From positions 1 through 64,000 of the IMG/VR virus record IMGVR_UViG_3300025387_000012: a stretch of 64,000 bases of DNA, one strand, 5' to 3'. Every line of letters starts with the position of its first letter. Within the stretch, counting starts at the first letter, position 1. Position numbers and translations under genes: made by a program. The notes beneath the pieces were generated by a model. The model was not told where the DNA came from. It ran no database searches and was given only the letters and a program-made list of their open reading frames with translations. This stretch comes from a virus. Lineage: Duplodnaviria > Heunggongvirae > Uroviricota > Caudoviricetes. This document shows, one piece after another, positions 6,808-20,847 of this stretch.

Positions 6808-7185
6808 ATGAAGCACGTTTATGTTTCTCGCGATGAGCTCAAGCTTTTGCTGTCGCGCCTAGATGATAACGACGCTACGCCTATCGAAAAGAAGGACCTT
6901 TTCGGTGGCAAGTTGGAGACCCTATATCTGACGCGTCGCAACATTCGAGTTCTCCTGTCGAAGCTGGATCGCAAGGCCAATGGCGAGGACACTGTCTGCA
7001 CCATCGTGAAGAACGATACCGTGCACCCTCTCTATCCCTGCAGCGTTCAGCTTTACGTGACGGCGATCGATGATCACACCACGCCTTCTCCTTCTGGCGC
7101 CCGTGTTCATGCCGTCGAGGATGAAGCCTACTACACCGAACGTGATGCAGGTCGCATGCATCCGTCAGACGAGGCAAACGTATGA
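6808..7185 (+). CDS. hypothetical protein
   Basis: ATG with GAGGAGGA RBS; extended -10 TGATATAAT at 6765-6773 upstream; no recognisable domain. Confidence 0.5.
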   Translation: MKHVYVSRDELKLLLSRLDDNDATPIEKKDLFGGKLETLYLTRRNIRVLLSKLDRKANGEDTVCTIVKNDTVHPLYPCSVQLYVTAIDDHTTPSPSGARVHAVEDEAYYTERDAGRMHPSDEANV

Positions 7186-7415
7186 ACAAATTCAACTACG
7201 TCGTAGCGGCTCCTTGGCCTGATGGTGGGGGTTCTCTCTGCGTCTACGCTTACCACGGTCAGGTCCAGTATGGAACCCAAGCTTCAGCTGAGGGCTTTCT
7301 GAAATACGTTCAGGAACAGATCAAGGCTGAAGAGGACAAGGGCAATCGCTATACGTTTGAACCCCGATCTACCGACTACCGCATCTACAAGATCGGGATT
7401 GAACTTGAGCGCTGA
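7182..7415 (+). CDS. hypothetical protein
   Basis: ATGA overlap with upstream stop (translational coupling). Confidence 0.45.
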   Translation: MNKFNYVVAAPWPDGGGSLCVYAYHGQVQYGTQASAEGFLKYVQEQIKAEEDKGNRYTFEPRSTDYRIYKIGIELER

Positions 7416-7659
7416 GGCTCACATTTTTCTGCTGCTTCTCCGGCTTTTCGGCGCGTTCGTCATTGCGATCCTCGCAATGATCTTCTTGCGGATCGCATGG
7501 GACATGCTGCTTCACGGCCCAGAACGCATTCGCGAGTATCAGCGCTGGCGGTACGAACATCGAAACGACATCAACGGCATGTATGTCGACAAGGAGGGCA
7601 AGATCGTCCTCGTGAAAAGGTTTGACGACAAAGTAAATGAAGTACGAAACCCAGATTAA
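7357..7659 (+). CDS. hypothetical small membrane protein (start uncertain)
   Basis: ORF with one predicted TM helix (LFGAFVIAILAMIFLRIAW); overlaps both neighbours, true start probably internal. Confidence 0.3.
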   Translation: MNPDLPTTASTRSGLNLSAEAHIFLLLLRLFGAFVIAILAMIFLRIAWDMLLHGPERIREYQRWRYEHRNDINGMYVDKEGKIVLVKRFDDKVNEVRNPD

Positions 7660-9376
7660 CGACGCCTTCAAACGCCTCGGATTTGTTCCTCGCGACGGTC
7701 AACGTGAAGCGGTGAACCAAATCCTCGAGGCGTTTATCGATGAGAAGATGGAGAATGTTATCCTCAACGCGTCGACTGGTACGGGTAAGTCGATCATTGG
7801 GGCTGCAGCCGCTGAAGCCCTGACAGCAGCTCGAGGTGGAGGTGATCACACGATCAAGTCCTCTATCTCTCTGACCGCAACAAACGTCCTCGCGAAGCAG
7901 TATGACGCTACGTTCCATGGTCTTGGAGATCAGGGAAAGTACGTGATGATCAAGGGCGCGAGCAACTATGACTGCGATGCCCTCTCAACTCCCGAAGAAA
8001 AGCAGAATGCGGAAGCCTGCGCTTGGTACACGATGGTGCAGAGCGGCTCTGAGTTCGAGCACATCATGGCGAAGCACTGCAACTCCTGCGAATACCTGCA
8101 GGTAAAGCGGAAGAAGAACCTCACTCGCCACCTCACCACGAACTATTCCTACTTCTTCATCGATCGAATGTACACGGGCAAGTTTGAAGACCGAGACCTT
8201 CTGATCTGGGACGAAGCGCACCTCATCAACGATCTGTTCTCCGAGCACAACGCAATCCACTTCTCTCAGAAGCGGATCCAAGCCATGCAGAAGGAGATAG
8301 CTGAAACGGTTACCCTTACCGATTTGGAGATCATGAAGATCCTAACTCAGGTCGCGGCAGACTGCGGCAAGAAGGACAAGATCACCGAGAAGAACTACCA
8401 AGCCTACCTCAACGCCATGGTAAAGGTCTACACCTACGCCAAGGAAGCAGGCGTGGTTATGGCTGAGCGAGCTCTTCGATCCAACCAGATGGGGCAGTAC
8501 TCGAAGCTTACCCGCTTTACCAAGAAGTATGAGGGTCTTCTCTGCAAGATCGATGACCTCTTCAAGTACGACTATCCTCACGTGTTCGAGTACAAGGAAG
8601 ATGAGTGCTCTGTCTCTGTGAAGCCGGTATTTGTCGGACAGATGATGAAGGCGCTTCAATGCTCTGCCCACAACCTCTTCATGTCGGCTACTGTCTCTCC
8701 TGAGTTCATGACTAAGACGCTGGACCTCGATCCTCTGAAGACGAAGTTCATCAAGCTTCCTCCGACGTTCCCCAAGGAGAGCAAGGAGGTCGTATTCTTC
8801 GATACGCTCTCACTCTCCTACACGTCCCTTCAGAACCCAGACACCGTCAAGGCTCTTCGCAAGAACGTTGCCAAGATCGTGAAGCACCACATCGACGATG
8901 GTGAGCGAGGCATCATCCTCACCCCATCATTCAAGCTTCAGAACGAACTGGTCGCCGAGCTTACGAGCCAACCGTCCTTCAAGAACTACAAGCTCTTCGA
9001 ACATCGTCAAGGCGAGAAGCTCGAGCACATTCTCGTCGCCTTCAAGAGCTACAAGGGCGGACCAGCCGTCCTTATCTCTCCCTCCATGTTTGAGGGCATC
9101 GACCTTCCAGGAGACCTCTCTCGCTTCCAGATTTTGGTGAAGGCTCCCTTCCCATCTCTTGGTGACAAGCGAATGAAGTTCATCCTCGACCACCATCCAG
9201 ACCTCTACAACGCGATCACCATCATGAAGATGGTTCAGGGGGCTGGGCGATCGGTTCGTTCGAAGGACGACTTTGCAGTCACCTACTGTCTGGACAAGAA
9301 CGCAGAGCGGCTGTTCAGTGGCAAGTCAAACATCTGGAAAGATGAGTTCACTCTTCGGTATACGAAGTTCCTGTAA
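7637..9376 (+). CDS. Rad3/XPD/DinG-family ATP-dependent DNA helicase (FeS-type)
   Basis: Walker A NASTGTGKS, DEAH box (LLIWDEAHLIND), motif VI QGAGRSVR; four-Cys cluster (CDALS...EACAW...HCNSCEY) between Walker A and B as in XPD/DinG FeS domain. Confidence 0.75.
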   Translation: MKYETQINDAFKRLGFVPRDGQREAVNQILEAFIDEKMENVILNASTGTGKSIIGAAAAEALTAARGGGDHTIKSSISLTATNVLAKQYDATFHGLGDQGKYVMIKGASNYDCDALSTPEEKQNAEACAWYTMVQSGSEFEHIMAKHCNSCEYLQVKRKKNLTRHLTTNYSYFFIDRMYTGKFEDRDLLIWDEAHLINDLFSEHNAIHFSQKRIQAMQKEIAETVTLTDLEIMKILTQVAADCGKKDKITEKNYQAYLNAMVKVYTYAKEAGVVMAERALRSNQMGQYSKLTRFTKKYEGLLCKIDDLFKYDYPHVFEYKEDECSVSVKPVFVGQMMKALQCSAHNLFMSATVSPEFMTKTLDLDPLKTKFIKLPPTFPKESKEVVFFDTLSLSYTSLQNPDTVKALRKNVAKIVKHHIDDGERGIILTPSFKLQNELVAELTSQPSFKNYKLFEHRQGEKLEHILVAFKSYKGGPAVLISPSMFEGIDLPGDLSRFQILVKAPFPSLGDKRMKFILDHHPDLYNAITIMKMVQGAGRSVRSKDDFAVTYCLDKNAERLFSGKSNIWKDEFTLRYTKFL

Positions 9377-9403
9377 TGTGGTATAATGGGACGAGGAAAA
9401 CAC

Positions 9404-9994
9404 ATGGCACTTAACCCCACAGCGTTCATGATCGAGGGGCTCGATCGTCTTGGCAAGTCCACCCTGATCAATGAGATCAGGCAGCGCCTCGGCTTTTATC
9501 AGGTCATCCACTACAGCAAGCCTGAGGTGCTTGACATGTGGTTCCAAGACAAGGTTGACAAGGGAGCTACCGCGGCTGAAGCCAAGGCGTATGCCCTCGA
9601 GTGGTACCAACGTCAGGGCTTCATCAACATGTTCGCGCTGATGCGGTCGTCTGCAAACATCATCTTCGATCGCGCCCATCTCGGAGAATGCGTCTACGCT
9701 CCCATGTATCGCGGGTACAGCGGAGATTACGTGTTCGAAATGGAGAAGCGCTATCCGGATGTTCTCGTCGGCCGCAATCGCTTGATCCTTCTGACTGAGG
9801 ACTTTGATCACAGTCAGCATTTCGTGGATGACGGTCTGTCATTCGATCCTACGAAGCGCCGCGAAGAGCAGAACCTCTTCATCAAGGCGTACAACAAGTC
9901 CAAGTTTCTCGATAAGCGGATCATCTGCGTAACGGATGTTCTGACTGGTGGGTATCGAGACAAGGAGGACATCCTAGAGGAAGCACTCGCATGA
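9404..9994 (+). CDS. thymidylate-kinase-like dNMP kinase (candidate hm-dCMP/dNMP kinase)
   Basis: P-loop FMIEGLDRLGKST matches Tmk motif (EGxDGxGKST); GAGGAA RBS 6 nt upstream of ATG 9404. Confidence 0.7.
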   Translation: MALNPTAFMIEGLDRLGKSTLINEIRQRLGFYQVIHYSKPEVLDMWFQDKVDKGATAAEAKAYALEWYQRQGFINMFALMRSSANIIFDRAHLGECVYAPMYRGYSGDYVFEMEKRYPDVLVGRNRLILLTEDFDHSQHFVDDGLSFDPTKRREEQNLFIKAYNKSKFLDKRIICVTDVLTGGYRDKEDILEEALA

Positions 9995-10257
9995 GCTACA
10001 GCGTCTTTTCCCTTACCGAAACACAGATGAATGAGCAGGCCAACAACGTGATGGAGCTTCTCGAGAAGCAGCTCTATCGCGACGGTCTAATCACCGACCC
10101 CAATCTTCTCAGCCGCAACTACACCATCACGCTCGTGAAGAAGGCATCTGTCTCTGACTGGTTCAAGAAGCATTTCTTGGGCCACGTGACTGATCAAGGT
10201 GGTGTGTTCGTGGTGTTCAAGAACGCGATCACCAACCCTGACGAGCCCAAAGAATGA
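9991..10257 (+). CDS. hypothetical protein
   Basis: ATGA-coupled ORF, no domain recognised. Confidence 0.45.
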   Translation: MSYSVFSLTETQMNEQANNVMELLEKQLYRDGLITDPNLLSRNYTITLVKKASVSDWFKKHFLGHVTDQGGVFVVFKNAITNPDEPKE

Positions 10258-10712
10258 AGAAGGTTTATCTGGCTGGCCCTATCACGGGCACATCGTGGAA
10301 TGAGAGTGAAGGCTGGCGCGACGAGCTAAAGCGTCTCGCTGAGATCAGTGGCATGTTCCACGAGGTCCGCTTCTTTAGCCCGCTCCGCGGCAAGACCTAT
10401 CTCCAGCAAGCCGCCACCATCTTCGACACTTATGACGACACGCTCTACTCGTCAGCCAAGGCGATTATGGAGCGTGACTTCCATGACGTCGAGACAGCAG
10501 ATGCCATCATCGCCAACTTCGATGGCGCCAAGAAGGTCAGCATCGGCACGGTCATGGAGATTGCATGGGCTCATGCCCGCCGTATCCCAGTAGTCGTCAT
10601 CACTGGCTCGGACACCTTCCACGATCACGCGATGATCCGTCAGGCCTCGTGGTACCGGGTAAATAACATTGAGACGGCGCTTGATGCGCTGTCCTATCTC
10701 TTCAACGAATAA
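10254..10712 (+). CDS. nucleoside 2-deoxyribosyltransferase / dNMP N-glycosidase (Rcl/DNPH1)-like protein
   Basis: N-terminal KVYLAGPITG motif characteristic of NDT/Rcl family; size 152 aa. Confidence 0.5.
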   Translation: MKKVYLAGPITGTSWNESEGWRDELKRLAEISGMFHEVRFFSPLRGKTYLQQAATIFDTYDDTLYSSAKAIMERDFHDVETADAIIANFDGAKKVSIGTVMEIAWAHARRIPVVVITGSDTFHDHAMIRQASWYRVNNIETALDALSYLFNE

Positions 10713-10720
10713 GGCATATC

Positions 10721-11842
10721 ATGAGGATCGCAGTAATCAAGCTTGGGTCCCGTATCTCGTTCAACGCGAACGATACTTCGGGTGGTAACGGTGAAGCGCG
10801 TAGCATCATCAAGATGCTGCAGCAAGGTGGGGCTGAGGTTCACATCTACACCAAGACCCTGAAGAAGGACAACCTTCTTCCAGAGTTTACCTGGCACAAC
10901 TTGAGTGATAGTCTCGATCTGCAGGTCCTTAACCGGTCGGATGCGCTGGTTATTCTGAACGGCAATGTCAACTTCTTTGGCGGAGCTGAGGATGTTGAGC
11001 AGCTGCGAAACTACGAGATCATTAACTATTTTGATGGTCCTGTCTTCTACATCTACTGCGATCCTGAGCTGACCCTCAAGCAGGTTTGGCCTTCAGTCGC
11101 CAAGAAGGAATGGGCTGGTAACTGGCGGCAGATCAATCTTGAGATCACCCGCAACGACATCATCTATCTCAGCCAGCCCCATGACGTTAAGAAGGTCTTC
11201 GAAAACTTCTCAAAGAACGAGATCATCCCGTCACAGGTCATCCACTATCCCTTCGAAAAGTTCCCATGCTTGAATGAGCGTCTCGAGTGGAACCCAGACC
11301 CTGAGGTCGACCTCTCCTATGGTGGTACGATGCGGGGTGGCAAGCGCGAGAAGAAGATGGTGAAGTTCTACTTCGGCCATCCCGAAGACATCAGCGTGGA
11401 GATGTTCGGCAAAATCCAAGAGAAGGACTTCTCTCCTAAGCACGCTCCGGCCGGTCTCCGTCGTCCTTCCTTTACTGGACCTATTCGCTATGACGAGATG
11501 CTGCCCAAGATGAACAAGGCCATGGCGCACTGCGTGATCGGCGATCCCTACTACGAGGAGATCAACGACATGGCACAGCGCGCCTACGAGAGCATCTGGT
11601 CAAAGGTCGTCACGTTCATCGACACCGATCTGGATCAGCTTCGTCGAGTGTATGGACGCGATCCAGTTCTGGCAGAGTTCCTCTACGTTTCAAGCCGCGA
11701 GGAACTTACTGACAAGCTACGTCTTCTAAAGGAAGACGTTAACCTTCGACGGACCATCCTTGCATCTCAGCTTGAGGCAATCAACTTCAACGCTGACGAG
11801 TACTGCAAGAACTTCGTCGACCTCATCAAGGCTCTAAGCTAA
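10721..11842 (+). CDS. bgt: DNA beta-glucosyltransferase (T4 BGT homologue)
   Basis: Collinear similarity to T4 beta-glucosyltransferase: MRIAVIKLG~MKIAIINMG, NGNVNFFGG~NSSINFFGG, YGGTMRGGKREKKMVKF~YGGSFRSGQRESKMVEF, PSFTGPIRYDEM~PVFTGKIPMNMV. Confidence 0.85.
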   Translation: MRIAVIKLGSRISFNANDTSGGNGEARSIIKMLQQGGAEVHIYTKTLKKDNLLPEFTWHNLSDSLDLQVLNRSDALVILNGNVNFFGGAEDVEQLRNYEIINYFDGPVFYIYCDPELTLKQVWPSVAKKEWAGNWRQINLEITRNDIIYLSQPHDVKKVFENFSKNEIIPSQVIHYPFEKFPCLNERLEWNPDPEVDLSYGGTMRGGKREKKMVKFYFGHPEDISVEMFGKIQEKDFSPKHAPAGLRRPSFTGPIRYDEMLPKMNKAMAHCVIGDPYYEEINDMAQRAYESIWSKVVTFIDTDLDQLRRVYGRDPVLAEFLYVSSREELTDKLRLLKEDVNLRRTILASQLEAINFNADEYCKNFVDLIKALS

Positions 11843-12522
11843 TGGCCACAGGCAGCCACCACGGCGATCCCATGCTAACAGACGAGGAGTACGTCGCCTG
11901 TCAGCTGGTCATTGAATGGATTCAAAAGCACGTCCAGGACAGTGAGGGCACGGACGTGTTTTGGCTGCCGACGCGGTTCGAGATGGCAGAATATCTCGCT
12001 GAGAATGCCAACGAGGAAACACTTGACACTCTCGAGATGATGCTCAAGTGGATTCGAACCGTCCGTGATGCCAACATGGTGTCGAGCGCTCCTCCCTTTA
12101 TCCCGGGGCGTGTTGACCTTATCAAGTCTCGCTTGTTCTGGCGCATTCGCAGTGGCAAGGAACCTCTTAAGTTCCCGCCTCCTTGCGCCTACTCATGCCC
12201 TTGGTACGAGCTCATCGATGAACCAGAGCGAGCTCACTGGGCATATGAGTGCTACATCCATAAGCCAGGTGAAGCGACCTTCTGGGGAACACTTAATAAA
12301 GCAATAGCCCACCTCGCGCAAGCGACATACACCGTCGAGACATGGAGTGATGAAGAAAACAGCGTCCCAGAAACAGTCTCCTTCGGAGAGTATCTCTTCA
12401 AGGTTTTCAAGGGCCCTTACCAGACTATGGCTCTTGATACTGCTACTGGACAGCCATATCGTAAGGATATTGAGGGTTGGTGGATACAATACATCGGAGA
12501 TAAAGATGGCGTTCGTACCTAA
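11842..12522 (+). CDS. hypothetical protein
   Basis: 226-aa ORF, no recognisable domain. Confidence 0.5.
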   Translation: MATGSHHGDPMLTDEEYVACQLVIEWIQKHVQDSEGTDVFWLPTRFEMAEYLAENANEETLDTLEMMLKWIRTVRDANMVSSAPPFIPGRVDLIKSRLFWRIRSGKEPLKFPPPCAYSCPWYELIDEPERAHWAYECYIHKPGEATFWGTLNKAIAHLAQATYTVETWSDEENSVPETVSFGEYLFKVFKGPYQTMALDTATGQPYRKDIEGWWIQYIGDKDGVRT

Positions 12523-12700
12523 CGGTCCCAAGGTAGGTGATCGAGTTCGCATTATGCACGACGTTCGCGTGCCAGCTGGCACCTACACGAAGGGTCATGA
12601 GTTCACAATCACGGGCTACAGCTTCCGCGGCCCTGACATGGTTGACGATGATGGTCGTCCGCTTTACGAAGCGTTCAACGTCACCATCGAAAAAATCTAA
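12506..12700 (+). CDS. hypothetical small protein
   Basis: GGAGA RBS before ATG 12506; 64 aa. Confidence 0.4.
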   Translation: MAFVPNGPKVGDRVRIMHDVRVPAGTYTKGHEFTITGYSFRGPDMVDDDGRPLYEAFNVTIEKI

Positions 12701-12706
12701 GGGCTG

Positions 12707-12735
12707 TTTACTTTTCCAGAGAAGCGTGTTACGAT
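12707..12735 (+). promoter_or_regulatory. promoter, conserved family variant (TTTACT-N17-TACGAT) driving long leader + CofD-like gene
   Basis: GGGCTGTTTACT. Confidence 0.45.
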
Positions 12736-12741
12736 CTTCTA

Positions 12742-12966
12742 ATGAGGATGTGTGCCCGAATCCCTTGATGGTCAAGACACACGTCCAATAGTCCGGAGGC
12801 TACCTCTGCCCGTAAGGGTGCAGTAACCAATCTGCTTAAACGCTAGACCACTGAGCGGTGTGGGCAAACCCGGCAAGTAGGTGGAAAGCCTACAACCTAT
12901 TTTTCTGATTGAACCTTTCCCGTAAATATGGGCGGGCCCGGAGGACGGGCGTAAAGGGAGAACACA
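12742..12966 (+). other. ~225-nt untranslated leader upstream of CofD-like gene (candidate structured regulatory RNA)
   Basis: No credible ORF; GC-rich repeated motifs CCGGAGG / CCCGTAA(G/A) (..CCGGAGGCTACCTCTGCCCGTAAGGGTG.. and ..CCCGTAAATATGGGCGGGCCCGGAGGACGGGCGTAAAGGG..). Confidence 0.35.
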
Positions 12967-14877
12967 ATGAACATCGTCATCCTCGCTGGTGGTACCGGCT
13001 CCATCGCCCTTCAGAAGGGTCTCTATGATCTGATCGACGCCCACTTCGATGGCATCGACACGAAGATCATCGTGAACGCCTATGACAATGGCCTTTCGAC
13101 CGGCGCGGTTCGACAGGTCATGGGCGGTCAAATCCTCGGTCCATCAGATGTCCGAAAGAACCAGACAACACGCCTGCAGCTCGAGGATCCAGAAAGTCCG
13201 TGGCACAACTTCCTCGGCATTCGATTTACGGCTCAAAGCTCTGAAGCCAAGGACTTCTGTGCGCGTGAGATCGACAAGCTTCGCGAAGCACTGACCCAGA
13301 AGAAGTCAGTAGCAGAAGCCGAGTTTGCTGTTCGCACTCTCTACCGCGCTCTAGATGTCTACTTTAGCGTTCCAGTTGCAACGAAGATCGACTACACCGA
13401 CTTCTCTCTTGCTAACATCATCTACGCCGGTCTTGCTCGCGCAAACAGAAACTCTCTTCGCGCTGCAGCATCCCACATGGCTGAGCTAATGGGCATCAAG
13501 GACAACGTCCTTCTCAATGATGACACGTCTCTCTTCCTCGGCGCCATTACTGAAAGTGGACGACGCATCACCGACGAAGGCGACATCGTCTCGTGGGGAA
13601 ACCTTGAAGACCCGTTCGTGGACATCTTCTTCACTGATGCAAATGGAAAGCCTTCTCGTCCAACTCTCTGTGATGAAGCATGGGACGCTCTCATCAATGC
13701 TGATCTGATCATCCTTTCATCTGGAACCCAGTGGTCCTCGCTGATCCCGACCTATGAGAGCATTCTCTTCCGTGAAGCGATGCACAAGGTCGCGGACATC
13801 GGACGAGCCAAGGTGCTGATGGTAATGAACCGCCAGCCAGACAAGGACAGCCCAGGTCAAGGCGCATCTGAGATCATCGAGCTCGTCGCGTCACGCTACT
13901 TCGCGCCAAAGCAGCTGCACGTTCTCATTGACGTGGAGGCTGATCCTATTATGCGAGAGATCACTGATGAGGCCGCTGACCTTGTCGCCGGCATCTATCC
14001 TTTTATCGGGCTTGATCTGTCCTTCATAACTGGCACTGAGAAAAAGGTTCACAACCCAGCGTTTCTGGCCAAGGCAGTATCCGAAACGTATTTCGGTGAT
14101 TACCTCAAGAGTGACTTCTTCATGTTCGACTACGATGACACTCTTGTCGGACGTGGCAACACAACTCCAAAGGCATCCAGCTTCAACATCAATGGCGTCG
14201 CCGGGCTTTCTCTGTTGGGTAAGGTTGCGATCTGCACGGGCAACTCTATCAAAGCCGTTAACCTTCGCACGCGCAATGCCTATCGCACACAGTCGATGCT
14301 CAGTCGACCACGTGTCACCGATCCTATGATCGTTTTTGCTGATGGTGGAGTGAATAAGTATCTCTACAATCCGATCATCACGGGGTATTCAAACACTGAT
14401 GATGACGATGCCATTCGATCGATCTTTGTTGAGTGCATCAACCCTGACTCTGTTATCCCGGCGACTGGAAAGCACAGCATCTCCACGATCATGTCATCAC
14501 TGATCAACAATGGCATTCCAATGTCGAAGATTGAGAATCGCGGTGGTGCCATGATCACGATTCGTCCAGTTGATACTGAGTATCGCAGGGCGCTGACAAA
14601 CTTCGTACAGCTTCTCACCAAGGGTTCAGGTCTTCTCGTCAGAGAAGCAGGTCGCTCGACTATCGAAATCCTCAACCCCAAGCTCACCAAGGTAGATGCT
14701 GTTCGGCACATCAAGCAGACTCTGAAGCCAGCCTCCATCACCTATGTGGGTGATGAGTTCAAGAGCGGTGGCAATGATGAGTGCATCAGGACAGTTGAAG
14801 GAGTGAAGTGTCTCGAAGTGAAGAACCCAGCACAGACCGCGTTTTTCATCAGCACGCTTCTGAACAGCCACCTATGA
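12967..14877 (+). CDS. CofD/YvcK (UPF0052)-like phosphotransferase domain fused to C-terminal HAD-like hydrolase domain
   Basis: N-term ILAGGTGSIALQKGL and VNAYDNGLSTGAVRQ match CofD/2-phospho-L-lactate-transferase family motifs; C-term FDYDDTL (HAD motif I), KVAICTGNS (motif II), GDEFKSGGND (motif IV). Preceded by ~225-nt leader. Confidence 0.6.
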   Translation: MNIVILAGGTGSIALQKGLYDLIDAHFDGIDTKIIVNAYDNGLSTGAVRQVMGGQILGPSDVRKNQTTRLQLEDPESPWHNFLGIRFTAQSSEAKDFCAREIDKLREALTQKKSVAEAEFAVRTLYRALDVYFSVPVATKIDYTDFSLANIIYAGLARANRNSLRAAASHMAELMGIKDNVLLNDDTSLFLGAITESGRRITDEGDIVSWGNLEDPFVDIFFTDANGKPSRPTLCDEAWDALINADLIILSSGTQWSSLIPTYESILFREAMHKVADIGRAKVLMVMNRQPDKDSPGQGASEIIELVASRYFAPKQLHVLIDVEADPIMREITDEAADLVAGIYPFIGLDLSFITGTEKKVHNPAFLAKAVSETYFGDYLKSDFFMFDYDDTLVGRGNTTPKASSFNINGVAGLSLLGKVAICTGNSIKAVNLRTRNAYRTQSMLSRPRVTDPMIVFADGGVNKYLYNPIITGYSNTDDDDAIRSIFVECINPDSVIPATGKHSISTIMSSLINNGIPMSKIENRGGAMITIRPVDTEYRRALTNFVQLLTKGSGLLVREAGRSTIEILNPKLTKVDAVRHIKQTLKPASITYVGDEFKSGGNDECIRTVEGVKCLEVKNPAQTAFFISTLLNSHL

Positions 14878-15671
14878 TCAAGAACGACCTCTTCATCATC
14901 GCAGCGGGCAAAGGCTCGCGAATGAAAACGAACGTGCCCAAGGCTCTCGTTCCAATCACTGACGAACCCTGCCTAACCACGACCCTTCAACAGGTCGCCC
15001 ATCGCTTTAACACCGTGCATCTCGTTACGAACAAGATGGTGCAGGACCAGTGGGAAGCCTACCTCGATGATCTCGCTGACAAATACCCAGAGCTAGCAGA
15101 GATAGTCGTTAACGTTCCGATAAACTCTGGACTTGGCGATGGTCATGCGACTCTCATGGGCATCAATGAAGCCGCTGAGATGTGCACGCTCTCATCCAAC
15201 GAGGTCGTGGTGGTCTGGGGAGACGTGTTCTTCCCCAACTCTGAGATCATGGACGAGCTGCTATCTCACGAGCTTCAAGGATCGGGACTTCTTCCTGCTG
15301 TAAGGGAAGACAACCCATACGTTTCACTTCTCGTTGATGAGCAGATGGCCTGCATCTCGGCCGACTTCTCCAAGTATGGTGAGACGCATCCTACCGGCTT
15401 TCACGACCAATCTGTCTTCCGCTTTAACCTTAGCCACCTCATCACGTCCTTGAACGCGCTTCACGCAGCATTCTGGAAGAATGGTCGCTACATTACCCCA
15501 GGCGGAGAGCTCTCACTTCTGTACACGTTCCACCATCTTTACAACACAGAATATCCGTGCTACGTGTATGAGACCGATTATCCCACGATGAGCTTCAACA
15601 CGGTTGAAGAGGTCGCCGACATCCAACAGGAGATAAAGAAGCGATGGACGTCAAAGCAAAGCCAGTCCTAG
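14874..15671 (+). CDS. MobA/CofC-like nucleotidyltransferase (sugar- or phospho-compound nucleotidylyltransferase)
   Basis: LFIIAAGKGSRM glycine-rich NTP-transferase loop; ATGA overlap with upstream CofD-like gene. Confidence 0.6.
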   Translation: MIKNDLFIIAAGKGSRMKTNVPKALVPITDEPCLTTTLQQVAHRFNTVHLVTNKMVQDQWEAYLDDLADKYPELAEIVVNVPINSGLGDGHATLMGINEAAEMCTLSSNEVVVVWGDVFFPNSEIMDELLSHELQGSGLLPAVREDNPYVSLLVDEQMACISADFSKYGETHPTGFHDQSVFRFNLSHLITSLNALHAAFWKNGRYITPGGELSLLYTFHHLYNTEYPCYVYETDYPTMSFNTVEEVADIQQEIKKRWTSKQSQS

Positions 15672-16309
15672 TTACCCTGACCGCACCGACCTGCTCTGGC
15701 AAGTCCCATCTGCTCAACCACATTCGTGCCGTTGGACTTCCCTGTCTTGTTTCGACAACGACAAGAAGGCCGCGTAAGGGTGAAGAGGAAGGGGTTGACT
15801 ACTACTTTATCTCTGACGAGGAGTCTCGTGAGATTGAAGCGAGAGATGGATTCGCTGAGCTGATGACCTACAATGGTTATCGCTATGGAGTTACGAAGGA
15901 AGAGTTTCATGATAAGCTTTCAAGGGGTCTCGCGTTTCTTATTGTGGAGCCGAAAGGTATTGACCACTACGTGCAGCCTGCTCTTGATGTTGGCGCCTCG
16001 CATGTAAAGCTGTTTGTCTTTGCTCCTCTAGAGGTCCGCGTTGAGCGCTTCAAGCAGCGTGTCGCCCGTGACCAAGCCGCCATTCTCCTTGCAGAGACCA
16101 GTGGCACGCCTCTCATGGAGCAGCTGAAATACCAGCGCGCTGAAGACACTCTCATGGCTCACATGAACCGCCTTGTCACGATGCTGACGACGGAGAGTGA
16201 TTGGCAGAGCCTAGTAGAATGGGATGAGGTCCTCGACGGGACAGACACTCCCGAACAAAATCTCCTCAACATCCTGGACACGGTACGCCGTAAACAGGAA
16301 GAGTGCTGA
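15644..16309 (+). CDS. guanylate-kinase-like nucleoside monophosphate kinase
   Basis: P-loop TAPTCSGKSHL plus TTRRPRKGEEEGVDYYFIS (classic Gmk TTRxxRxGExxGxDYxF motif). Confidence 0.65.
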   Translation: MDVKAKPVLVTLTAPTCSGKSHLLNHIRAVGLPCLVSTTTRRPRKGEEEGVDYYFISDEESREIEARDGFAELMTYNGYRYGVTKEEFHDKLSRGLAFLIVEPKGIDHYVQPALDVGASHVKLFVFAPLEVRVERFKQRVARDQAAILLAETSGTPLMEQLKYQRAEDTLMAHMNRLVTMLTTESDWQSLVEWDEVLDGTDTPEQNLLNILDTVRRKQEEC

Positions 16310-16343: not shown

Positions 16344-16769
16344 ATGAGCACATCTGAAAACAACTGGGTGCAAGACATCCATGACATGCACACCAAGTTT
16401 GGTGTCCGTCCCGTAATCGCCGGCCTCAACAAGGAGAAGCTGGCAAAGTTCCTTGAGTTTCGTCTGAACTTCCTCCAAGAAGAGCTCGACGAAGCCAAGG
16501 AAGCTGCAGTCTCTGGCGATCCTTCCAAAGCAGAAGATGTAGTCGACGCAATGATTGACCTTTGCGTTGTTGCCATCGGAACGCTCGATGCTTTCGGTGT
16601 CGACGCGTATACTGCCTGGAACCGCGTTCATGAAAAGAACATGCAGAAAGAACCGGGCATTAAGCCAGAGCGTCCAAATCCTCTGGGTCTCCCCGATCTC
16701 ATCAAGCCAGCTGGCTGGACAGCTCCAACCCACGCTGACAATGTAGGCCTTCTCGACAAACTTTTCTAG
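16344..16769 (+). CDS. MazG-like all-alpha nucleotide pyrophosphohydrolase (candidate dCTPase)
   Basis: EExxExxDxxxDxxxYL-type MazG motif (LQEELDEAKEA...EDVVDAMIDL); in hmC phages such enzymes remove dCTP. Confidence 0.55.
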   Translation: MSTSENNWVQDIHDMHTKFGVRPVIAGLNKEKLAKFLEFRLNFLQEELDEAKEAAVSGDPSKAEDVVDAMIDLCVVAIGTLDAFGVDAYTAWNRVHEKNMQKEPGIKPERPNPLGLPDLIKPAGWTAPTHADNVGLLDKLF

Positions 16770-16829: not shown

Positions 16830-17126
16830 ATGCTTCTTCTTGATGTGGTAGCGCTTGGCGCTGTCCTGTTTCTTCTCTGGATTTTGATCTTCCAAGTCTT
16901 GGTTCCCGTCATCAGTGGCCGTCCGCTGTTCCCTGCTTTTCGCAAGGACCCGCTGACCGTCAAGGTGGCGGCGACCCGCGATGTGGTGTCTAATCTAAAA
17001 GAGCAGAACGCCAATCTCACCGAACTGCAAACCCTGCTCTCTCAGCGTGCAAGCCTTGAAAAGCGAATCGCTGAACTCGAGAGCCCGCCGGCTGCCACCG
17101 GTGAAACCCAATCTCCTAAGGAGTAG
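16830..17126 (+). CDS. small membrane protein (NfeD-like partner of SPFH protein?)
   Basis: AAAGGAGG RBS; N-terminal TM helix; immediately upstream of SPFH gene. Confidence 0.5.
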   Translation: MLLLDVVALGAVLFLLWILIFQVLVPVISGRPLFPAFRKDPLTVKVAATRDVVSNLKEQNANLTELQTLLSQRASLEKRIAELESPPAATGETQSPKE

Positions 17127-17128
17127 AA

Positions 17129-18382
17129 ATGGCCGAAGGCAATGTTGTTAATCGCTTGGTGGGGAGAGGTGCTCTTATCACCGGTCTCGTCATCGGCGCA
17201 ATCGTTTTCTGCATCTTCGCGGTTCATCAATCATTCGTGAATGTTGACGCCGGCGAAATCGTTGTCATCCAGGCGCCAATCTCCGGTCAACTGACTGTCG
17301 TTTCCGATCCAGGTTGGAAGTGGCGCGGATTTGGTGCTGTGACTTCCTATCCTCGTCGTGCTCAGTTCAGCTTCTCTAGCAGAGCTGACCAAGGCAAGGA
17401 TGCTGATGAGTCTATCACCACCCGCTTCAACGACGGTGGTCACGCGAATATCTCTGGCACGATTAACTGGTCGATGCCTCTTTCGCCTGACAAGGTCATC
17501 GCGCTTCACAAGGACTTCCACTCCTTCCAAGCGATCGAACAGCAGCTCATTCGCACTCAACTTCAGAAGGTCATCTACAACGTTGGCCCGACGATGTCGT
17601 CGACTGAAAGCTCTGCCGAACGCAGACCGGAAATCCCGAAGTACATCGACGACCAAATGGTCAACGGTCCTTATCTGACCCGTACGGTTCAGCAGATGAT
17701 CGACGATCCTATCACCAACCAACCGAAGCAAGTTGCTGTTGTCCAAATCGCAACCGGTGCCGACGGCCGCCCTCTGCGCGAATCGATCTCGCAGATCAGC
17801 CGCTACGGCATTATCCTGCAGCCCGTCTCGATCAACCAGATCAAGTACGACGATGTTGTTGAAAACCAGATCAAGCAGCGTCAAGACGCTACCACTCAGG
17901 TTCAGATCAGCATCGCCAACGCCAAGAAGGCTGAGCAGCAAGCGATCACCACCGCCAAGGAAGGTGAAGCTGCAGCCGCAAAAGCCAAGTGGGAGCAGGA
18001 AACTTTGAACGCCAAGGACATCGCCGAAGCTGAGAAGAACAAGCAGGTTGCTGAACTTGCCGTGGCTACTGCCGCTGCAAAGAAGCAAGCCTTGATCCTC
18101 GAAGGTGAAGGTGAAGCTGCGAAGCGGAAGGCAATCCTTCTCGCCGACGGCGCCTTGGAAAAGAAGCTCGATGCGTATGTCAAGGTCAATGAAGCCTATG
18201 CAGACGCAATCAAGAATGCCAATGCCGGCGCATGGACCCCATCGGTCATCATGGGCGGCGCAGGTGGTGGCAATCAAGTCCACTCAGGCGCATCTTCTCT
18301 GGTCGACATGCTGACCGCGAAGACCGCATCTGAACTCGGACTGGATCGCACGATCACGCAAGGCGCAAAAGCTAAGCACTAA
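17129..18382 (+). CDS. SPFH/band-7 (prohibitin/HflK-like) domain membrane protein
   Basis: N-terminal TM then VDAGEIVVIQAPISGQLTVVSDPGWKWRGFGAVTSYPRRAQF typical band-7 start; C-terminal Ala/Glu/Lys-rich coiled coil; followed by terminator. Confidence 0.6.
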   Translation: MAEGNVVNRLVGRGALITGLVIGAIVFCIFAVHQSFVNVDAGEIVVIQAPISGQLTVVSDPGWKWRGFGAVTSYPRRAQFSFSSRADQGKDADESITTRFNDGGHANISGTINWSMPLSPDKVIALHKDFHSFQAIEQQLIRTQLQKVIYNVGPTMSSTESSAERRPEIPKYIDDQMVNGPYLTRTVQQMIDDPITNQPKQVAVVQIATGADGRPLRESISQISRYGIILQPVSINQIKYDDVVENQIKQRQDATTQVQISIANAKKAEQQAITTAKEGEAAAAKAKWEQETLNAKDIAEAEKNKQVAELAVATAAAKKQALILEGEGEAAKRKAILLADGALEKKLDAYVKVNEAYADAIKNANAGAWTPSVIMGGAGGGNQVHSGASSLVDMLTAKTASELGLDRTITQGAKAKH

Positions 18383-18469: not shown

Positions 18470-19981
18470 TTGCCCCCTGGGATCACAATGAAACTATTCG
18501 ACCTTCACGAAGAAAAGAAAGCCTCCTCAGGGATGGCGCTTTCTAAGATCGTCTCCTACATCAGCCGTAAGATCGGCGTTGAGCTGTTGCGTATCCCTGG
18601 CGTGGAACACTTCCACAACTCCAAGGAGAACGGTTACGGTCTCCGCTATGTCGAAGCAGGTTCAACTCGCTGCATTCGTTTGAACTGGAACTCTGGAAGC
18701 GCAGCTTCTGGCGGTAAGATCAGCGATCTTTCGTCCATCGACGTCTTCTCTGGTAAGAACCACGATCCTACCTACACCATCTCTACGAAGGGTATTTCGA
18801 TCGTTCACGCTCTTCCAATGGTTGTTGCGATGCTGCAGGACCCATCGATTGGTAAGCACTTTGCATTCCCTGTCTCTGCTGAAATGGCTCTGTCAGAAGC
18901 GGTCCTCCTTGAAGTTGCTCGTGATGAGTACACTTCTGAAGGTGCACTCACAGACTTCCTCCATCAGCTGGCAAGCGGCAAGTCCTTTACCCGCTCTGAG
19001 TTCATTCAGCGCTACCACATCGTCCATGTCGGCATCTTCGACACGATCTATGACGACTTTGCTGATCGCTTCATCATTCGTGGTAAGCGTATCTCCCTCG
19101 CAAGCAATCAGAATCTGGACAGCCTGAAGGACAGCATTCTTTCCAAGGCTGGCGTCGTTGAGGTCAGCAAGGGCGGTACCAAGGAGGTCTACTTTAAGTC
19201 TCCTCAGGAAGAAGAACTTGAGAAGGAGGGCGGTGGCCAAAAGGTTCCTTACGCCGACACTCTCGAACACCTTGAAGGTCTGGTACAGGCCCTCATCAAG
19301 GGTTCCTTCAACGCACTGTTCGTTGCAGGTAAGGGTGGTACCGGTAAGACTCAGACCGTTGAGCGCGTGCTTCACTCTGCTGGTCTTACCGATGGTCATG
19401 GCTATTACAAGAACACCGGTTCAGCTTCTGCTGCCGGTGTTTACACCCTGCTCTACCATCACCGCAACGACATCATCCTCTTCGACGACTCCGATGGTGC
19501 ACTCGCCGACCAAGATGCTCGTAACCTGATCAAGGCTGCTACCGACACCAAGAAGTCTCGTAAGCTGGTTTGGAACAAGCGTTCCTCATTCATCTTCGAT
19601 CCAGAGTCTGAGGATCCAGATGCCTACGAAGGCGATCTGTCAATGGCTCCTAAGTACTTCGACTTCAAGGGTCGTATCATCTTCATCTCGAACCTTCCAC
19701 TGAACAAGCTGGACCCAGACGGTGCACTTCGCACCCGCGCGTTCATCATCAACGTCGATCCAACTGATGATGAGATGTTCGACTACATGGGCAAGATTCT
19801 CGACGACATCAAGCTTGAAGATGGTCTGACTCTTTCCAAGGAAGAGAAGGAACACGTCCTCACCGTCGTTAAGACGTCCAAGCGTAAGGGTGACGTATCC
19901 CTTCGTAAGCTCGTTCGCGCTCTCAACCTTGCCGCATCGGGGGCGCCAAACTGGGAAAAACTGGTTGAGTTGTACGCCTGA
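18470..19981 (+). CDS. P-loop NTPase of unknown function (paralog of 23110..24075)
   Basis: Walker A FVAGKGGTGKTQTV, Walker B ILFDDSDG, shared C-terminal block FDFKGRIIFISNLPLNKLDP with paralog; alternative start ATG 18488. Confidence 0.6.
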   Translation: MPPGITMKLFDLHEEKKASSGMALSKIVSYISRKIGVELLRIPGVEHFHNSKENGYGLRYVEAGSTRCIRLNWNSGSAASGGKISDLSSIDVFSGKNHDPTYTISTKGISIVHALPMVVAMLQDPSIGKHFAFPVSAEMALSEAVLLEVARDEYTSEGALTDFLHQLASGKSFTRSEFIQRYHIVHVGIFDTIYDDFADRFIIRGKRISLASNQNLDSLKDSILSKAGVVEVSKGGTKEVYFKSPQEEELEKEGGGQKVPYADTLEHLEGLVQALIKGSFNALFVAGKGGTGKTQTVERVLHSAGLTDGHGYYKNTGSASAAGVYTLLYHHRNDIILFDDSDGALADQDARNLIKAATDTKKSRKLVWNKRSSFIFDPESEDPDAYEGDLSMAPKYFDFKGRIIFISNLPLNKLDPDGALRTRAFIINVDPTDDEMFDYMGKILDDIKLEDGLTLSKEEKEHVLTVVKTSKRKGDVSLRKLVRALNLAASGAPNWEKLVELYA

Positions 19982-20037: not shown

Positions 20038-20847
20038 ATGTCTGAAACAAGAAGAGCATCTCAGAGAAACCACCACATCATTTACAGGACAACGTGTAGT
20101 GTAACTGGTAAGTGGTATATTGGAATGCATAGCACTGACAAACTTGATGACGGTTATCTTGGTTCAGGCATGCATCTTTGGCGATCGATTGACAAGTATG
20201 GAAAAGAACATCACTCTGTTGAAATCCTCGAGCATTATCCAGACAGAAAATCGTTGTCGGAAAGAGAAAGAGAAATTCTTGCTGAGGCTAAGAAACATCC
20301 GATGTGCATGAATATTGCTTGGGGTGGAGAAGGTTACTACGATCGTCCTCCCACCAAGGAAGAAACCCGGGAGAAACTTTCTAAGGCATCTAAGGGTTAT
20401 GTACGAACAAAAGAGTGGTATGAAAAGATTGCTGCTTCAAGAGCAAAGACCTGGACAACACATACTCCAGAAGCACGTGAGAAGATACGTCAAGCGCTTA
20501 CTGGAAAGACGCTAAGTGAAGAACATAAGCGCAAAATTTCAGAAGGCGGCACTGGCCAGAAGAGAACCGACGAAACCCGTGTAAATATCTCAAATGCTTT
20601 AAAGGGCAAGCCAAAGGTTCAACCTGCTTTCTCTGATGAACATCGAGAAGCTATTCGCCAATCTAGAATTGGCAAGAAGCATTCCGAAGAAGCAAAAGCC
20701 AACATGCGAAAGTCTAAAGATATGAGCAAGAATAAGCGACGCTGCACCGTAGATGGGATAAATATCTACGAATCTGTTAATGACCTTGTTTCAGCATTAG
20801 GAAGTGGCAGAAATGGATCAAGGTCTCCACTTTTCCGGTATATCTAA
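20038..20847 (+). CDS. GIY-YIG homing endonuclease with NUMOD3-like C-terminal repeats
   Basis: IYRTTCSVTGKWYIGMHS (GIY-YIG), conserved R/E; repeated SEEHKRKISEGGTG / TRVNISNALKGK / SEEAKANMRKS NUMOD3-like helices; TAGGAGG RBS. Confidence 0.75.
   Translation: MSETRRASQRNHHIIYRTTCSVTGKWYIGMHSTDKLDDGYLGSGMHLWRSIDKYGKEHHSVEILEHYPDRKSLSEREREILAEAKKHPMCMNIAWGGEGYYDRPPTKEETREKLSKASKGYVRTKEWYEKIAASRAKTWTTHTPEAREKIRQALTGKTLSEEHKRKISEGGTGQKRTDETRVNISNALKGKPKVQPAFSDEHREAIRQSRIGKKHSEEAKANMRKSKDMSKNKRRCTVDGINIYESVNDLVSALGSGRNGSRSPLFRYI

Follow-up and report, generated by a model that had tools for sequence, protein, structure and literature searches.

Whether a restriction, CRISPR or type IV defence system can cut a phage is determined by the glycosylation of its DNA, and recent work indicates that phages often carry sugar-donor pathways of their own. 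T4 modifies its cytosines with gp42, gp1, gp56 and a beta-glucosyltransferase (BGT) that uses the UDP-glucose of its host. RB69, DLP3 and HY126 make UDP-arabinose through an arabinose-5-phosphate isomerase, an AfhE-type nucleotidyltransferase-kinase and an AfhF-type HAD phosphatase, followed by DNA arabinosyltransferases (PMC13326640). Outside DNA modification, YvcK/GlmR of Firmicutes binds UDP-GlcNAc and regulates GlmS (PMC7525490; PMC13046274). Its catalytic residues include an acidic pair, D40/D41, and N198 (PMC10128056), and the in vivo role of its in vitro uridyltransferase activity has been questioned (bioRxiv 10.64898/2026.06.23.733835).

Here we describe a phage locus in which a CofD-superfamily domain, fused to a HAD domain and paired with a sugar-1-phosphate nucleotidyltransferase, accompanies a T4 BGT-like enzyme. 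In the literature searched we found no published description of this pair or module and no earlier tie of its enzyme family to DNA modification.

Organization of the DNA modification block

The window, a stretch of 64,000 nucleotides from a Caudoviricetes record, carries all of the genes described below on its plus strand. A dCMP hydroxymethylase of the T4 gp42 type (positions 5905-6675; PDB 1b5d/1b49, E 1.8e-70) has its catalytic cysteine within SDFMCTN. Its motif MRSNDAIFGFRND places Asp at the equivalent of ThyA N177, the position of cytosine specificity, and Asp rather than Asn at the equivalent of ThyA D169; with a further Asp at the equivalent of ThyA L143, all of the residues that define T4 gp42 are present (PMC13326640). 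The Asp at the D169 equivalent distinguishes the 5-hydroxymethylcytosine (hmC) type from the 5-hydroxyC type (PMC13326640), and from its sequence the enzyme is predicted to make 5-hm-dCMP, the base being glycosylated later. A dNMP/thymidylate-kinase-like P-loop protein (9386-9994; Pfam AAA_28 2.1e-8 and Thymidylate_kin 9.6e-5; phrog_761), whose gene recurs in 25 of the 40 viral loci with this synteny, is probably an hm-dCMP kinase. The glycosyltransferase (10721-11842) has a GT-B fold and belongs to the T4 BGT family, GT63: it matches Pfam PF09198 (E 3.3e-15; 56.6 bits, cut-off 27), phrog_7922 (1.6e-48) and the T4 BGT structures (E 2.2e-32), its D114 aligns with the catalytic D100 of T4, and it conserves the equivalents of the UDP-contacting residues S189, R191, R195, I238, Y261, R269 and E272.

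Downstream, a single ORF of 636 amino acids (12967-14877) encodes the fusion protein, with the CofD-superfamily domain in residues 1-375 (12967-14091) and a HAD-IIB domain in residues 376-636 (14092-14877). Its TGA stop codon (14875-14877) and the ATG (14874-14876) of the nucleotidyltransferase gene (14874-15671) overlap as ATGA, and the latter gene shares 28 nt with that for a guanylate kinase (15644-16309). A MazG/PRA-PH-like NTP pyrophosphohydrolase follows (16344-16769; Pfam PRA-PH 2.6e-9; phrog_671 9e-19), which is present in 13 of the 40 viral loci and probably acts in the hmC pathway as a dCTPase-type enzyme, a role that we assume by analogy with T4 gp56. Counterparts of the T4 hydroxymethylase, dNMP kinase, MazG-type pyrophosphatase and BGT are thus all found in one block of the window.

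The first-pass annotation had noted the CofD-HAD fusion, the translationally coupled, MobA-like nucleotidyltransferase directly after it and the guanylate kinase and MazG genes beyond; these features are present and far above chance. It had also proposed that the fusion protein and the nucleotidyltransferase work together. The ATGA overlap, synteny in about 40 viral loci and fusions in some relatives bear this out, as the gp42-type and T4 BGT-like genes do for the placement of the pair in an hmC-DNA modification block, and we likewise predict that the pair uses a nucleotide to activate a phosphorylated small molecule. As a whole its interpretation holds in part: on the phosphodiester-linked decoration of DNA that it suggested, the comparative evidence points rather to synthesis of a sugar donor. 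The kinase that it had linked to the pair is indeed a guanylate kinase (Pfam 2.3e-13, NCBIfam guanyl_kin 3e-18, phrog_1815 4e-28; GMP-binding motif STTTRRPRKGEEEGVDYYF) but proved clade-specific: it adjoins the pair in 19 of the 40 viral loci, is absent from the bacterial ones, and may have its role in phosphorylating dGMP/GMP and not in the module.

The fusion protein and its nucleotidyltransferase partner

The N-terminal domain has a CofD-like fold, and its residues 3-289 match Pfam CofD (PF01933; E 6.6e-17, 62 bits, cut-off 30). The motifs GGTGS (residues 8-12) and VNAYDNGLSTG (36-46) are invariant or nearly so among 36 homologs. For the fusion protein we found upwards of 548 homologs, nearly all of 600-650 amino acids. 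The module is widespread: the N-terminal domain alone retrieved 751 clusters (50% identity) at E <= 1e-3 and 456 at E <= 1e-10, many of them from phage contigs of 290-430 kb. This domain is the best-conserved portion of the protein, with a long signature that stays invariant even in very distant members. In NCBIfam it scored 53.2 bits against the YvcK-type model (TIGR01826; cut-off 196) and 30 bits against the GAK CofD-like model (cut-off 340); the CofD/FbiA equivalog model was not matched, nor were the CofD/FbiA chains in the PDB by sequence. Its closest relatives in fold and sequence include YvcK/GlmR (UPF0052), and by sequence it reaches YvcK-type proteins only. The earlier label 'CofD-family' therefore holds for the superfamily but not for CofD proper: this is a distinct subfamily, to which YvcK/GlmR is about as close as CofD/FbiA, and it is predicted to catalyse a phosphotransfer or nucleotide-sugar step.

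The aspartate equivalent to the catalytic D40 of GlmR is retained as an invariant D40, followed by Asn as in the Staphylococcus epidermidis protein 2ppv. On our own reading of the sequence, T262 of the fusion protein is the likely equivalent of N198 in Listeria monocytogenes GlmR. D61 is also invariant, and we take D40 and D61 to correspond to the metal ligands of FbiA. The nearest characterised relatives of the domain bind UDP-GlcNAc and synthesise it in vitro (PMC10128056).

The HAD-IIB domain keeps all of its catalytic motifs, DxDxT (388-392), T424, K575 and GDE...GND (595-604), invariant in 36 sequences. Its cap is of the C2B fold and PMM-type enzymes are the structures nearest to it; its best fold matches, with which it shares the HAD-IIB core and cap, are HAD-type phosphomannomutase (PMM), the alpha-phosphoglucomutase (alpha-PGM) of Lactococcus (4bnd) and trehalose-6-phosphate phosphatase (T6PP), PMM and T6PP being nearly equal in score. 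Sequence similarity to these enzymes is weak (E about 0.007), and the fusion protein falls under the Pfam thresholds for PMM and Hydrolase_3. The spacing of motif IV, GD-x5-GND, agrees with PMM, and the cap motifs IENRG...IKP...EYR and GRTTIEI...K match what we take to be the motifs of PMM2. Of the earlier description as a HAD phosphatase, the HAD assignment stands, while 'phosphatase' is too narrow for a domain that resembles PMM and alpha-PGM as well as T6PP and may be a sugar-phosphate mutase or phosphatase.

The nucleotidyltransferase is a MobA-fold protein (Pfam NTP_transf_3, E 3.1e-11) with a Rossmann-like fold and a sugar-binding lobe. It bears AAGKGSRMKTNVPK, which fits the signature G-x-G-[ST]-R-[ML]-x4-P-K, and its R17, P23 and K24 are invariant; its 'AAG' motif we take to be a mark of pyrimidine-NTP enzymes. 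A profile search of the PDB returned GlmU (E 3e-15 over 200 aligned residues). The AF2 model (pLDDT 89.3) was compared by Foldseek: the top 50 matches were all hexose-1-phosphate nucleotidyltransferases, with no CofC, FbiD or MobA among them. The partner had been called CofC-like, an identity that we discard because its best matches in sequence and structure are the GlmU N-domain, GalU and RmlA. GlmU also gave the best NCBIfam matches, but these score only about 40 bits where the cut-offs are 366-700, which places the protein outside the GlmU, GalU and RmlA equivalogs; its relatives form a separate family of 297 proteins.

Distribution and genomic context of the pair

The pair lies immediately downstream of the glycosyltransferase gene in 40 of the 41 viral loci whose glycosyltransferase is at least 38% identical to that of the window, and is missing from all 30 loci whose BGT relatives are more distant, T4-like genomes included, where host UDP-glucose is used. 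It is thus strictly tied to one clade of T4 BGT-like enzymes. Its invariable partner is this glycosyltransferase gene, rather than guanylate kinase or MazG, and across the 40 viral loci no additional gene, for instance one for an epimerase or dehydratase, was found to be conserved alongside it. The neighbourhoods of the pair hold glycosyltransferase, hmC and nucleotide genes only. Unlike CofC/CofD (FbiD/FbiA), it is partnered by a HAD domain and a glycosyltransferase, and the annotated neighbourhoods contain no CofE/G/H or other F420 genes; unlike YvcK/GlmR of Firmicutes, it has no yvcJ or whiA nearby in the Pfam-annotated loci or clustered neighbourhoods.

In some relatives the components are fused. 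One protein (P0084) combines CofD, HAD and nucleotidyltransferase domains, and another (in L015) nucleotidyltransferase, CofD and GT2 domains. In L015 and a second locus (L019), the HAD partner is instead of the beta-phosphoglucomutase family, another lineage that also acts on sugar phosphates. The CofD-like domain also occurs without a fused HAD, joined to GT2 or to the nucleotidyltransferase. In bacteria the pair adjoins or is fused to glycosyltransferases of families GT1, GT2 or GT8: in a clade about 50% identical to the phage proteins it adjoins YjiC/OleD-like UDP-glycosyltransferases, and in more distant bacteria its neighbour or fusion partner is GT2 or GT8.

In one viral locus (L093), with a glycosyltransferase 37% identical to that of the window, three other genes stand upstream in place of the pair, encoding a SIS isomerase, a nucleotidyltransferase-kinase fusion and a small HAD protein. 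Homologs that span the whole fusion occur in 368 T4-like phage records, and from its nucleotidyltransferase-plus-kinase architecture we read it as a probable member of the AfhE/RB69 gp52:53 family. Together the three genes look like the UDP-arabinose donor pathway of RB69, DLP3 and HY126 (PMC13326640), and we read the locus as a non-orthologous displacement of the pair by another donor pathway. The module of the window shares with the UDP-arabinose pathway a HAD enzyme, a sugar-1-phosphate nucleotidyltransferase and a position next to DNA glycosyltransferases and a base-modifying homolog of thymidylate synthase. It lacks the SIS isomerase and the APH-like kinase and has instead the CofD-superfamily domain fused to a PMM-like HAD-IIB domain; its base is predicted to be hmC rather than 5-hydroxyC, and its sugar is probably a hexose.

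A candidate sugar-donor pathway and its alternatives

We favour, at a probability of about 0.55, the reading that the pair supplies the adjacent T4 BGT-like enzyme with the nucleotide sugar that it needs to glycosylate hmC-DNA, the CofD-like domain performing a phosphotransfer step. Cytosine would be replaced by hmC through the gp42-type hydroxymethylase, the dNMP kinase and the MazG dCTPase, and the glycosyltransferase would glycosylate hmC in DNA from a UDP-sugar made in situ. The fusion protein would turn a hexose phosphate of central metabolism into hexose-1-phosphate, which the GlmU-like enzyme would couple to a pyrimidine NTP, probably UTP. The HAD-IIB domain may be a PMM-type mutase or a phosphatase that takes the distal phosphate off a hexose bisphosphate; the CofD-like domain would perform the remaining phosphotransfer, most economically the anomeric phosphorylation of a sugar phosphate, which is the kinase step of the heptose pathway and of the phage UDP-arabinose pathway. 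The sequences show the domain identities, the synteny, the fusions and the kept UDP-binding residues of the glycosyltransferase; which way the flux runs, which sugar is made and what the CofD-like domain catalyses are our inference.

This supply role is supported by the identities of the domains (nucleotidyltransferase, HAD and UDP-GlcNAc-related N-terminal domain), all of which belong to sugar-phosphate/UDP-sugar chemistry, by the intact catalytic Asp and UDP site of the glycosyltransferase, by the 40/41 versus 0/30 co-distribution and by the lack of another conserved partner. The substitute HAD of two loci also handles sugar phosphates, and in L093 a UDP-arabinose-like donor pathway occupies the slot of the pair. 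Moreover, the pair keeps its sequence while its partner glycosyltransferase changes family, a pattern that suits a shared soluble substrate better than one particular acceptor. Against the supply role, UDP-glucose is a housekeeping metabolite, so that a dedicated supply needs a rationale such as higher flux, host independence or a non-housekeeping sugar. We know of no member of the CofD superfamily that is a sugar kinase; to our knowledge, the fold has a single firmly established chemistry, the phospho-ester transfer with release of GMP by CofD/FbiA, to which the neighbouring guanylate kinase would be suited. The uridyltransferase activity of GlmR, as noted, is disputed in vivo.

The CofD/FbiA chemistry would fit a different scheme, a refinement of the first-pass proposal, in which an NDP-hexose is produced by the HAD mutase together with the nucleotidyltransferase and the CofD-like domain moves hexose-1-phosphate from it onto a hydroxyl group, either on hmC or on the sugar that the glycosyltransferase has added, releasing NMP and leaving a phosphodiester-linked sugar on DNA. 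The invariant D40 and D61, if we are right to equate them with FbiA metal ligands, favour it, as do the guanylate kinase adjacent in 19 of 40 loci and the obligatory pairing and fusions, which parallel CofC/CofD. The CofD-GT2 fusions resemble capsule polymerases, in which a glycosyltransferase and a phospho-sugar transferase are united. We nevertheless consider this scheme unlikely. Phage and bacterial proteins about 50% identical, with an invariant signature, serve completely different glycosyltransferase families and acceptors (DNA, small molecules, polysaccharide). The 'AAG' motif, if it marks pyrimidine-NTP enzymes as we take it to, and the preserved UDP site point to UMP as the released nucleotide, in which case the guanylate kinase argument falls. 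The slot in L093 is filled by what looks like a pure donor pathway, and in the literature searched nothing links CofD-family proteins with phage DNA. The scheme, if true, would mean a teichoic-acid-like, negatively charged decoration of giant-phage DNA, on hmC or glucosyl-hmC, with known genes, a prospect that we likewise regard as doubtful.

Should the HAD domain prove to be a true mutase, it and the nucleotidyltransferase would suffice to make UDP-hexose, and the CofD-like domain of the supply module would be left without an assigned job. The domain could then be a non-catalytic or accessory UDP-sugar sensor exerting feedback on the fused phosphohexomutase, much as GlmR does for UDP-GlcNAc synthesis; its sequence reach to YvcK-type proteins only, and the binding of UDP-GlcNAc and regulation of GlmS by these, would agree. 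This seems improbable for the most conserved part of the protein, which retains the D40-equivalent Asp and a long invariant signature, and its occurrence without a fused HAD, joined to GT2 or nucleotidyltransferase, would be odd for a mutase regulator. A role apart from DNA, in which the phage boosts or diverts host UDP-GlcNAc or envelope precursor pools or makes an F420-type cofactor, is suggested by the functions of GlmR and GlmU, the best-characterised relatives, in UDP-GlcNAc synthesis and by the Pfam name CofD. We regard it as very improbable, given the tight synteny with a DNA glycosyltransferase and hmC genes, the lack of a CofC/FbiD-type partner and of F420 genes in the annotated neighbourhoods, and the unmatched CofD/FbiA equivalog.

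The cultured Ralstonia phage RsoM2USA carries the module as its genes 1 and 486, and the role of the module is therefore directly testable. Solving the chemistry of the CofD-like domain would define a new sugar modification of DNA or, alternatively, a new way of making a known one. It would also reveal what a large and so far uncharacterised part of the CofD superfamily does, one present in bacterial glycosylation islands as well, and would bear on the debated biochemistry of YvcK/GlmR.

A CofD-like domain joined to a HAD domain

The gene at 12967-14877 (+) lies within a block of + strand genes and encodes a 636-aa fusion protein, residues 3-289 of which match the Pfam CofD family (E 6.6e-17). 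The C-terminal third falls under Pfam thresholds in the window copy; its HAD motifs (D388-x-D390-x-T392, T424, K575 and GDE596...GND604) are complete and invariant in 36 homologs. By sequence, the domain may be either a mutase or a phosphatase.

The first-pass annotation called the N-domain a CofD-family domain, an assignment that we now revise. NCBIfam searches with this domain returned no CofD/FbiA equivalog; the only models reached were 'GAK CofD-like' and one of YvcK type, the latter at 53 bits against a cut-off of 196. Sequence searches of the PDB reached only YvcK-type UPF0052 structures. An AlphaFold model built from 36 homologs was confident (pLDDT 88.6, pTM 0.88), and Foldseek ranked YvcK-type structures highest (TM about 0.8). 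Alignment of 15 very diverse members from phages and bacteria (25-42% identity) revealed an invariant signature peculiar to the subfamily: GGxG, NxxDxGxSTGxxR, GPSDxRK, N150, E204, GTxxSSLxP and N288xxxD292. Based on the family-model, PDB and fold results and on this signature, the N-domain forms its own branch within the CofD superfamily, distinct from both CofD and YvcK. An F420-type reading was rejected, since no CofD/FbiA equivalog was matched, the partner enzyme is not CofC-like and the annotated neighbourhoods contain no F420 genes.

The source genome is clearly that of a giant phage. At 91% identity, the nearest homolog of the fusion protein is encoded on a 331,551-bp metagenomic scaffold, and further relatives lie on contigs of 290-430 kb. 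In an annotated phage collection, the only protein matches were to RsoM2USA, a jumbo phage of Ralstonia (37%), and to LR756500, an uncultured phage of 462 kb (30%), whose records both lack annotation; near-identical DNA was not found in that collection. In RsoM2USA, the fusion protein, the glycosyltransferase and the nucleotidyltransferase correspond to genes 1, 2 and 486, respectively. Scanning genome contigs with a single sequence gave no match, and the related loci described below were recovered by a profile scan of these contigs.

The nucleotidyltransferase and the hmC genes

The start codon of the nucleotidyltransferase gene (14874-15671, +) overlaps the stop codon of the fusion gene (ATGA at 14874-14877). 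Its 265-aa product has a MobA fold and the sugar-1-phosphate nucleotidyltransferase signature AAGKGSRMKTNVPK. Its best family matches are to GlmU, with 200 residues aligned to the GlmU pyrophosphorylase domain in a profile comparison (E 3e-15), and the top 50 structural neighbours of its model (pLDDT 89.3) are exclusively GlmU, GalU and RmlA-type enzymes, with CofC, FbiD and MobA absent from these 50. The label 'CofC-like', initially given to this enzyme, is therefore right for its fold and no further. In our own reading of the alignment (A2 numbering, in which the first row starts one residue before Met), an invariant Ile occupies the position matched to what we take to be GlmU Q76. The enzyme also has an AAG motif, which is typical of UTP/CTP enzymes.

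Upstream, a close homolog of the T4 gp42 dCMP hydroxymethylase (5905-6675, E 1.8e-70) has the catalytic Cys and an Asp at the equivalent of ThyA N177, which confers cytosine specificity. At the equivalent of ThyA D169 it has Asp, not Asn; by a 2026 criterion based on this position (PMC13326640), its sequence marks it as a predicted hmC-forming rather than 5-hydroxyC-forming enzyme. Genes for a dNMP-kinase-like protein (9386-9994) and a nucleoside 2-deoxyribosyltransferase-like protein (10254-10712, Pfam 1.5e-10) follow. The latter gene overlaps the end of the preceding 88-aa ORF, is immediately upstream of the glycosyltransferase gene and has counterparts in some relatives (L008, L009, L010 and L033); its product might be a dNMP N-hydrolase that clears unmodified or unwanted nucleotides.

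The glycosyltransferase itself (10721-11842, +) is a homolog of T4 β-glucosyltransferase (BGT; Pfam 3.3e-15, PHROG 1.6e-48, PDB 2.2e-32). It retains the equivalents of the T4 catalytic D100 and the UDP-contacting S189, R191, R195, I238, Y261, R269 and E272, most of them invariant across 16 relatives. The hmC genes, together with a BGT homolog that has kept its UDP-contacting residues, argue that the DNA of this phage almost certainly carries glycosylated hmC, with a UDP-sugar as donor.

Downstream of the pair (fusion and nucleotidyltransferase genes), a guanylate kinase gene that overlaps the nucleotidyltransferase gene by 28 nt is followed by a gene for a MazG-type pyrophosphohydrolase (16344-16769). 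A PhnN-like sugar-bisphosphate kinase was considered for the former and rejected (66 bits to guanylate kinase, 17 to PhnN, GMP-binding motif present). The sequence details described in the first-pass annotation (a CofD-family domain fused to a HAD domain, translational coupling to a MobA-like nucleotidyltransferase, guanylate kinase and MazG) were thus all borne out; its setting of hmC and glycosylated DNA is sound, given the gp42 and BGT homologs in the window, and its logic of nucleotide activation is right, whereas its family assignments did not hold in detail.

Neither the 226-aa ORF (11842-12522) nor the small ORFs between the glycosyltransferase and fusion genes are conserved (two loci have them), and they gave no family matches. 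The 266-nt intergenic stretch at 12700-12966 has no Rfam or tRNA match, no enrichment of promoters or terminators, and unexceptional folding (z = -0.5). Between MazG and the next conserved gene, positions 16830-18382 encode a 98-aa ORF, read as a putative membrane/coiled-coil protein, and a 417-aa SPFH/Band-7 protein (Pfam 5.7e-13, phrog_11908). Both are missing from the locus of the 91%-identical relative (L009), where MazG is directly followed by a 497-aa protein; in L010, a Band_7 gene comes after the one for guanylate kinase. The segment resembles a variable or mobile insertion. A homing-endonuclease-like gene (20038-20847, phrog_314, 1.6e-46) lies in the lowest-GC stretch in this part of the window (0.479 versus about 0.53), and similar ORFs occur at varying positions in eight related loci. 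Two paralogs about 3 kb apart (18470-19981 and 23110-24075; phrog_1250) have weak clamp-loader/AAA similarity, and related copies occur in 11 related loci (a cluster of 17 ORFs). The sole long minus-strand gene at its end of the window (509-4717) encodes a 1402-aa protein with repeated head-decoration/Ig-like structural domains (phrog_2647, phrog_697).

Partners of the pair in phages and bacteria

Neighbours were clustered in 40 viral loci centred on the fusion gene. The BGT-like glycosyltransferase and the nucleotidyltransferase were each present in 37, the dNMP kinase in 25, the hydroxymethylase in 21 and MazG in 13; guanylate kinase adjoined in 19 viral loci and in none of the bacterial ones, so its inclusion in the module proper was not upheld. 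A simpler account places guanylate kinase and MazG in the nucleotide/hmC block. No conserved partner beyond these six emerged from the 40 loci. The order glycosyltransferase, fusion, nucleotidyltransferase was kept down to 26% identity. In the reverse test, a profile scan starting from the glycosyltransferase, the pair lay just downstream in 40 of 41 loci whose glycosyltransferase was ≥38% identical to the window's, and in none of the 30 loci whose BGT relative was more distant. The latter include T4-like genomes of ~170 kb, in which the hydroxymethylase gene is directly followed by that for the glycosyltransferase. These counts make the pair an accessory to a single glycosyltransferase clade.

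Bacterial versions of the fusion protein, at about 50% identity, form a monophyletic clade on ordinary bacterial contigs with TonB receptors, MFS/MatE transporters, an NRPS and transposases. The nucleotidyltransferase is always there, and in P0084 it is joined to the fusion protein in a single chain. It is accompanied by one or two GT1 enzymes that resemble the small-molecule UDP-glycosyltransferases YjiC, OleD and CalG. In four loci of this clade (L011, L055, L056 and L004), where the pair sits beside YjiC/OleD-like genes, transposases (IS66, DDE_3, rve) often flank, and in L011 PglX/PglW-like genes are nearby; these genes may form a mobile cassette whose glycosylation would serve detoxification, natural products or defence.

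More distant bacterial loci are arranged as GT2, nucleotidyltransferase, CofD-HAD, GT8 (L013); GT2, CofD-HAD, nucleotidyltransferase (L014); β-PGM-family HAD, nucleotidyltransferase-CofD-GT2 fusion, GT2 (L015); nucleotidyltransferase, CofD-GT2 fusion, GT2 (L016); and CofD, β-PGM-family HAD, GT2, nucleotidyltransferase (L019). The L015 (9179-11977, 932 aa) and L016 (4889-6955, 688 aa) fusions are single polypeptides from Pseudobdellovibrionaceae and Bryobacterales MAGs, respectively; both can serve as Rosetta stones for the CofD subfamily. From the bacterial and phage gene orders, the recurring set is therefore nucleotidyltransferase, CofD-like domain, HAD and glycosyltransferase. The glycosyltransferase family varies (GT63, GT1, GT2, GT8), and the HAD partner comes from two unrelated lineages, both handling sugar phosphates.

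Proposed sugar-donor supply and the phosphodiester-transfer alternative

We favour, with a probability of roughly 0.55, a role in donor supply, in which the three domains would turn a central sugar phosphate into a UDP-sugar for the glycosyltransferase. The CofD-like domain would convert the sugar phosphate to a 1,x-bisphosphate by phosphotransfer, the HAD domain would yield the sugar-1-phosphate, the nucleotidyltransferase would form the UDP-sugar, and the glycosyltransferase would then produce glycosyl-hmC DNA. The kinase-equivalent role is suggested by elimination; we know of no CofD-fold enzyme that is a kinase, and if the HAD domain were a true mutase the CofD-like domain would be left without an assigned job. 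A less likely alternative, which still carries real weight and was the idea of the first-pass annotation, is that the CofD-like domain transfers sugar-1-phosphate from an NDP-sugar to a hydroxyl group on the modified base. This would need only the chemistry already established for CofD/FbiA, would explain the obligatory pairing with the nucleotidyltransferase and would account for guanylate kinase. The AAG motif of the nucleotidyltransferase and the UDP site of the glycosyltransferase, however, argue for uridine, not guanosine.

Donor supply is preferred because the fusion protein, signature included, is highly conserved among loci in which the glycosyltransferase, and with it the acceptor (DNA, small molecules, polysaccharide), differs completely, a constancy that fits a soluble common substrate, and because every partner glycosyltransferase family characteristically uses UDP-hexoses and the phage enzyme keeps its UDP site. 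A further reason comes from L093, a 278-kb viral contig whose glycosyltransferase is 37% identical to the window's and is preceded by three other genes instead of the pair, for a SIS isomerase, a nucleotidyltransferase-APH-kinase fusion and a small HAD protein with TDCDGILT...GDDLPD (7049-11191, including the BGT-like glycosyltransferase). The nucleotidyltransferase-kinase has full-length homologs in 368 T4-like phage records and was assigned to the AfhE/RB69 gp52:53 family by architecture, not direct comparison; given this assignment, the three genes match components of the UDP-arabinose donor pathway known for RB69, DLP3 and HY126 (PMC13326640). L093 looks like a UDP-arabinose-type pathway of the T4-like RB69 group, here on a jumbo-phage-sized contig and with a BGT-family enzyme in place of the RB69 arabinosyltransferases. 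A donor pathway in the pair's slot is a non-orthologous displacement, and matching components sets the CofD-like domain opposite the kinase, which suggests a heptose/arabinose-style route.

The phage UDP-arabinose pathway is a precedent for a donor module (PMC13326640), and glycosyltransferase/epimerase pairs tune sugar-nucleotide pools (bioRxiv 10.1101/2023.12.21.572611). GlmR/YvcK binds UDP-GlcNAc and acts in vitro as a uridyltransferase (PMC10128056, PMC13046274), an activity doubted in vivo in S. aureus (bioRxiv 10.64898/2026.06.23.733835). Full-text literature searches found no paper on CofD-family proteins in connection with phages, modification of DNA or glycosyltransferases, and the RsoM2USA paper leaves the module genes hypothetical and says nothing on DNA modification. 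We interpret these genes as a module by which the phage itself would supply nucleotide sugar for glycosylating DNA, with an uncharacterised branch of the CofD superfamily at its core. It is common, with 751 clusters of the N-domain at 50% identity for E ≤ 1e-3 and 456 for E ≤ 1e-10, and is open to testing in RsoM2USA.
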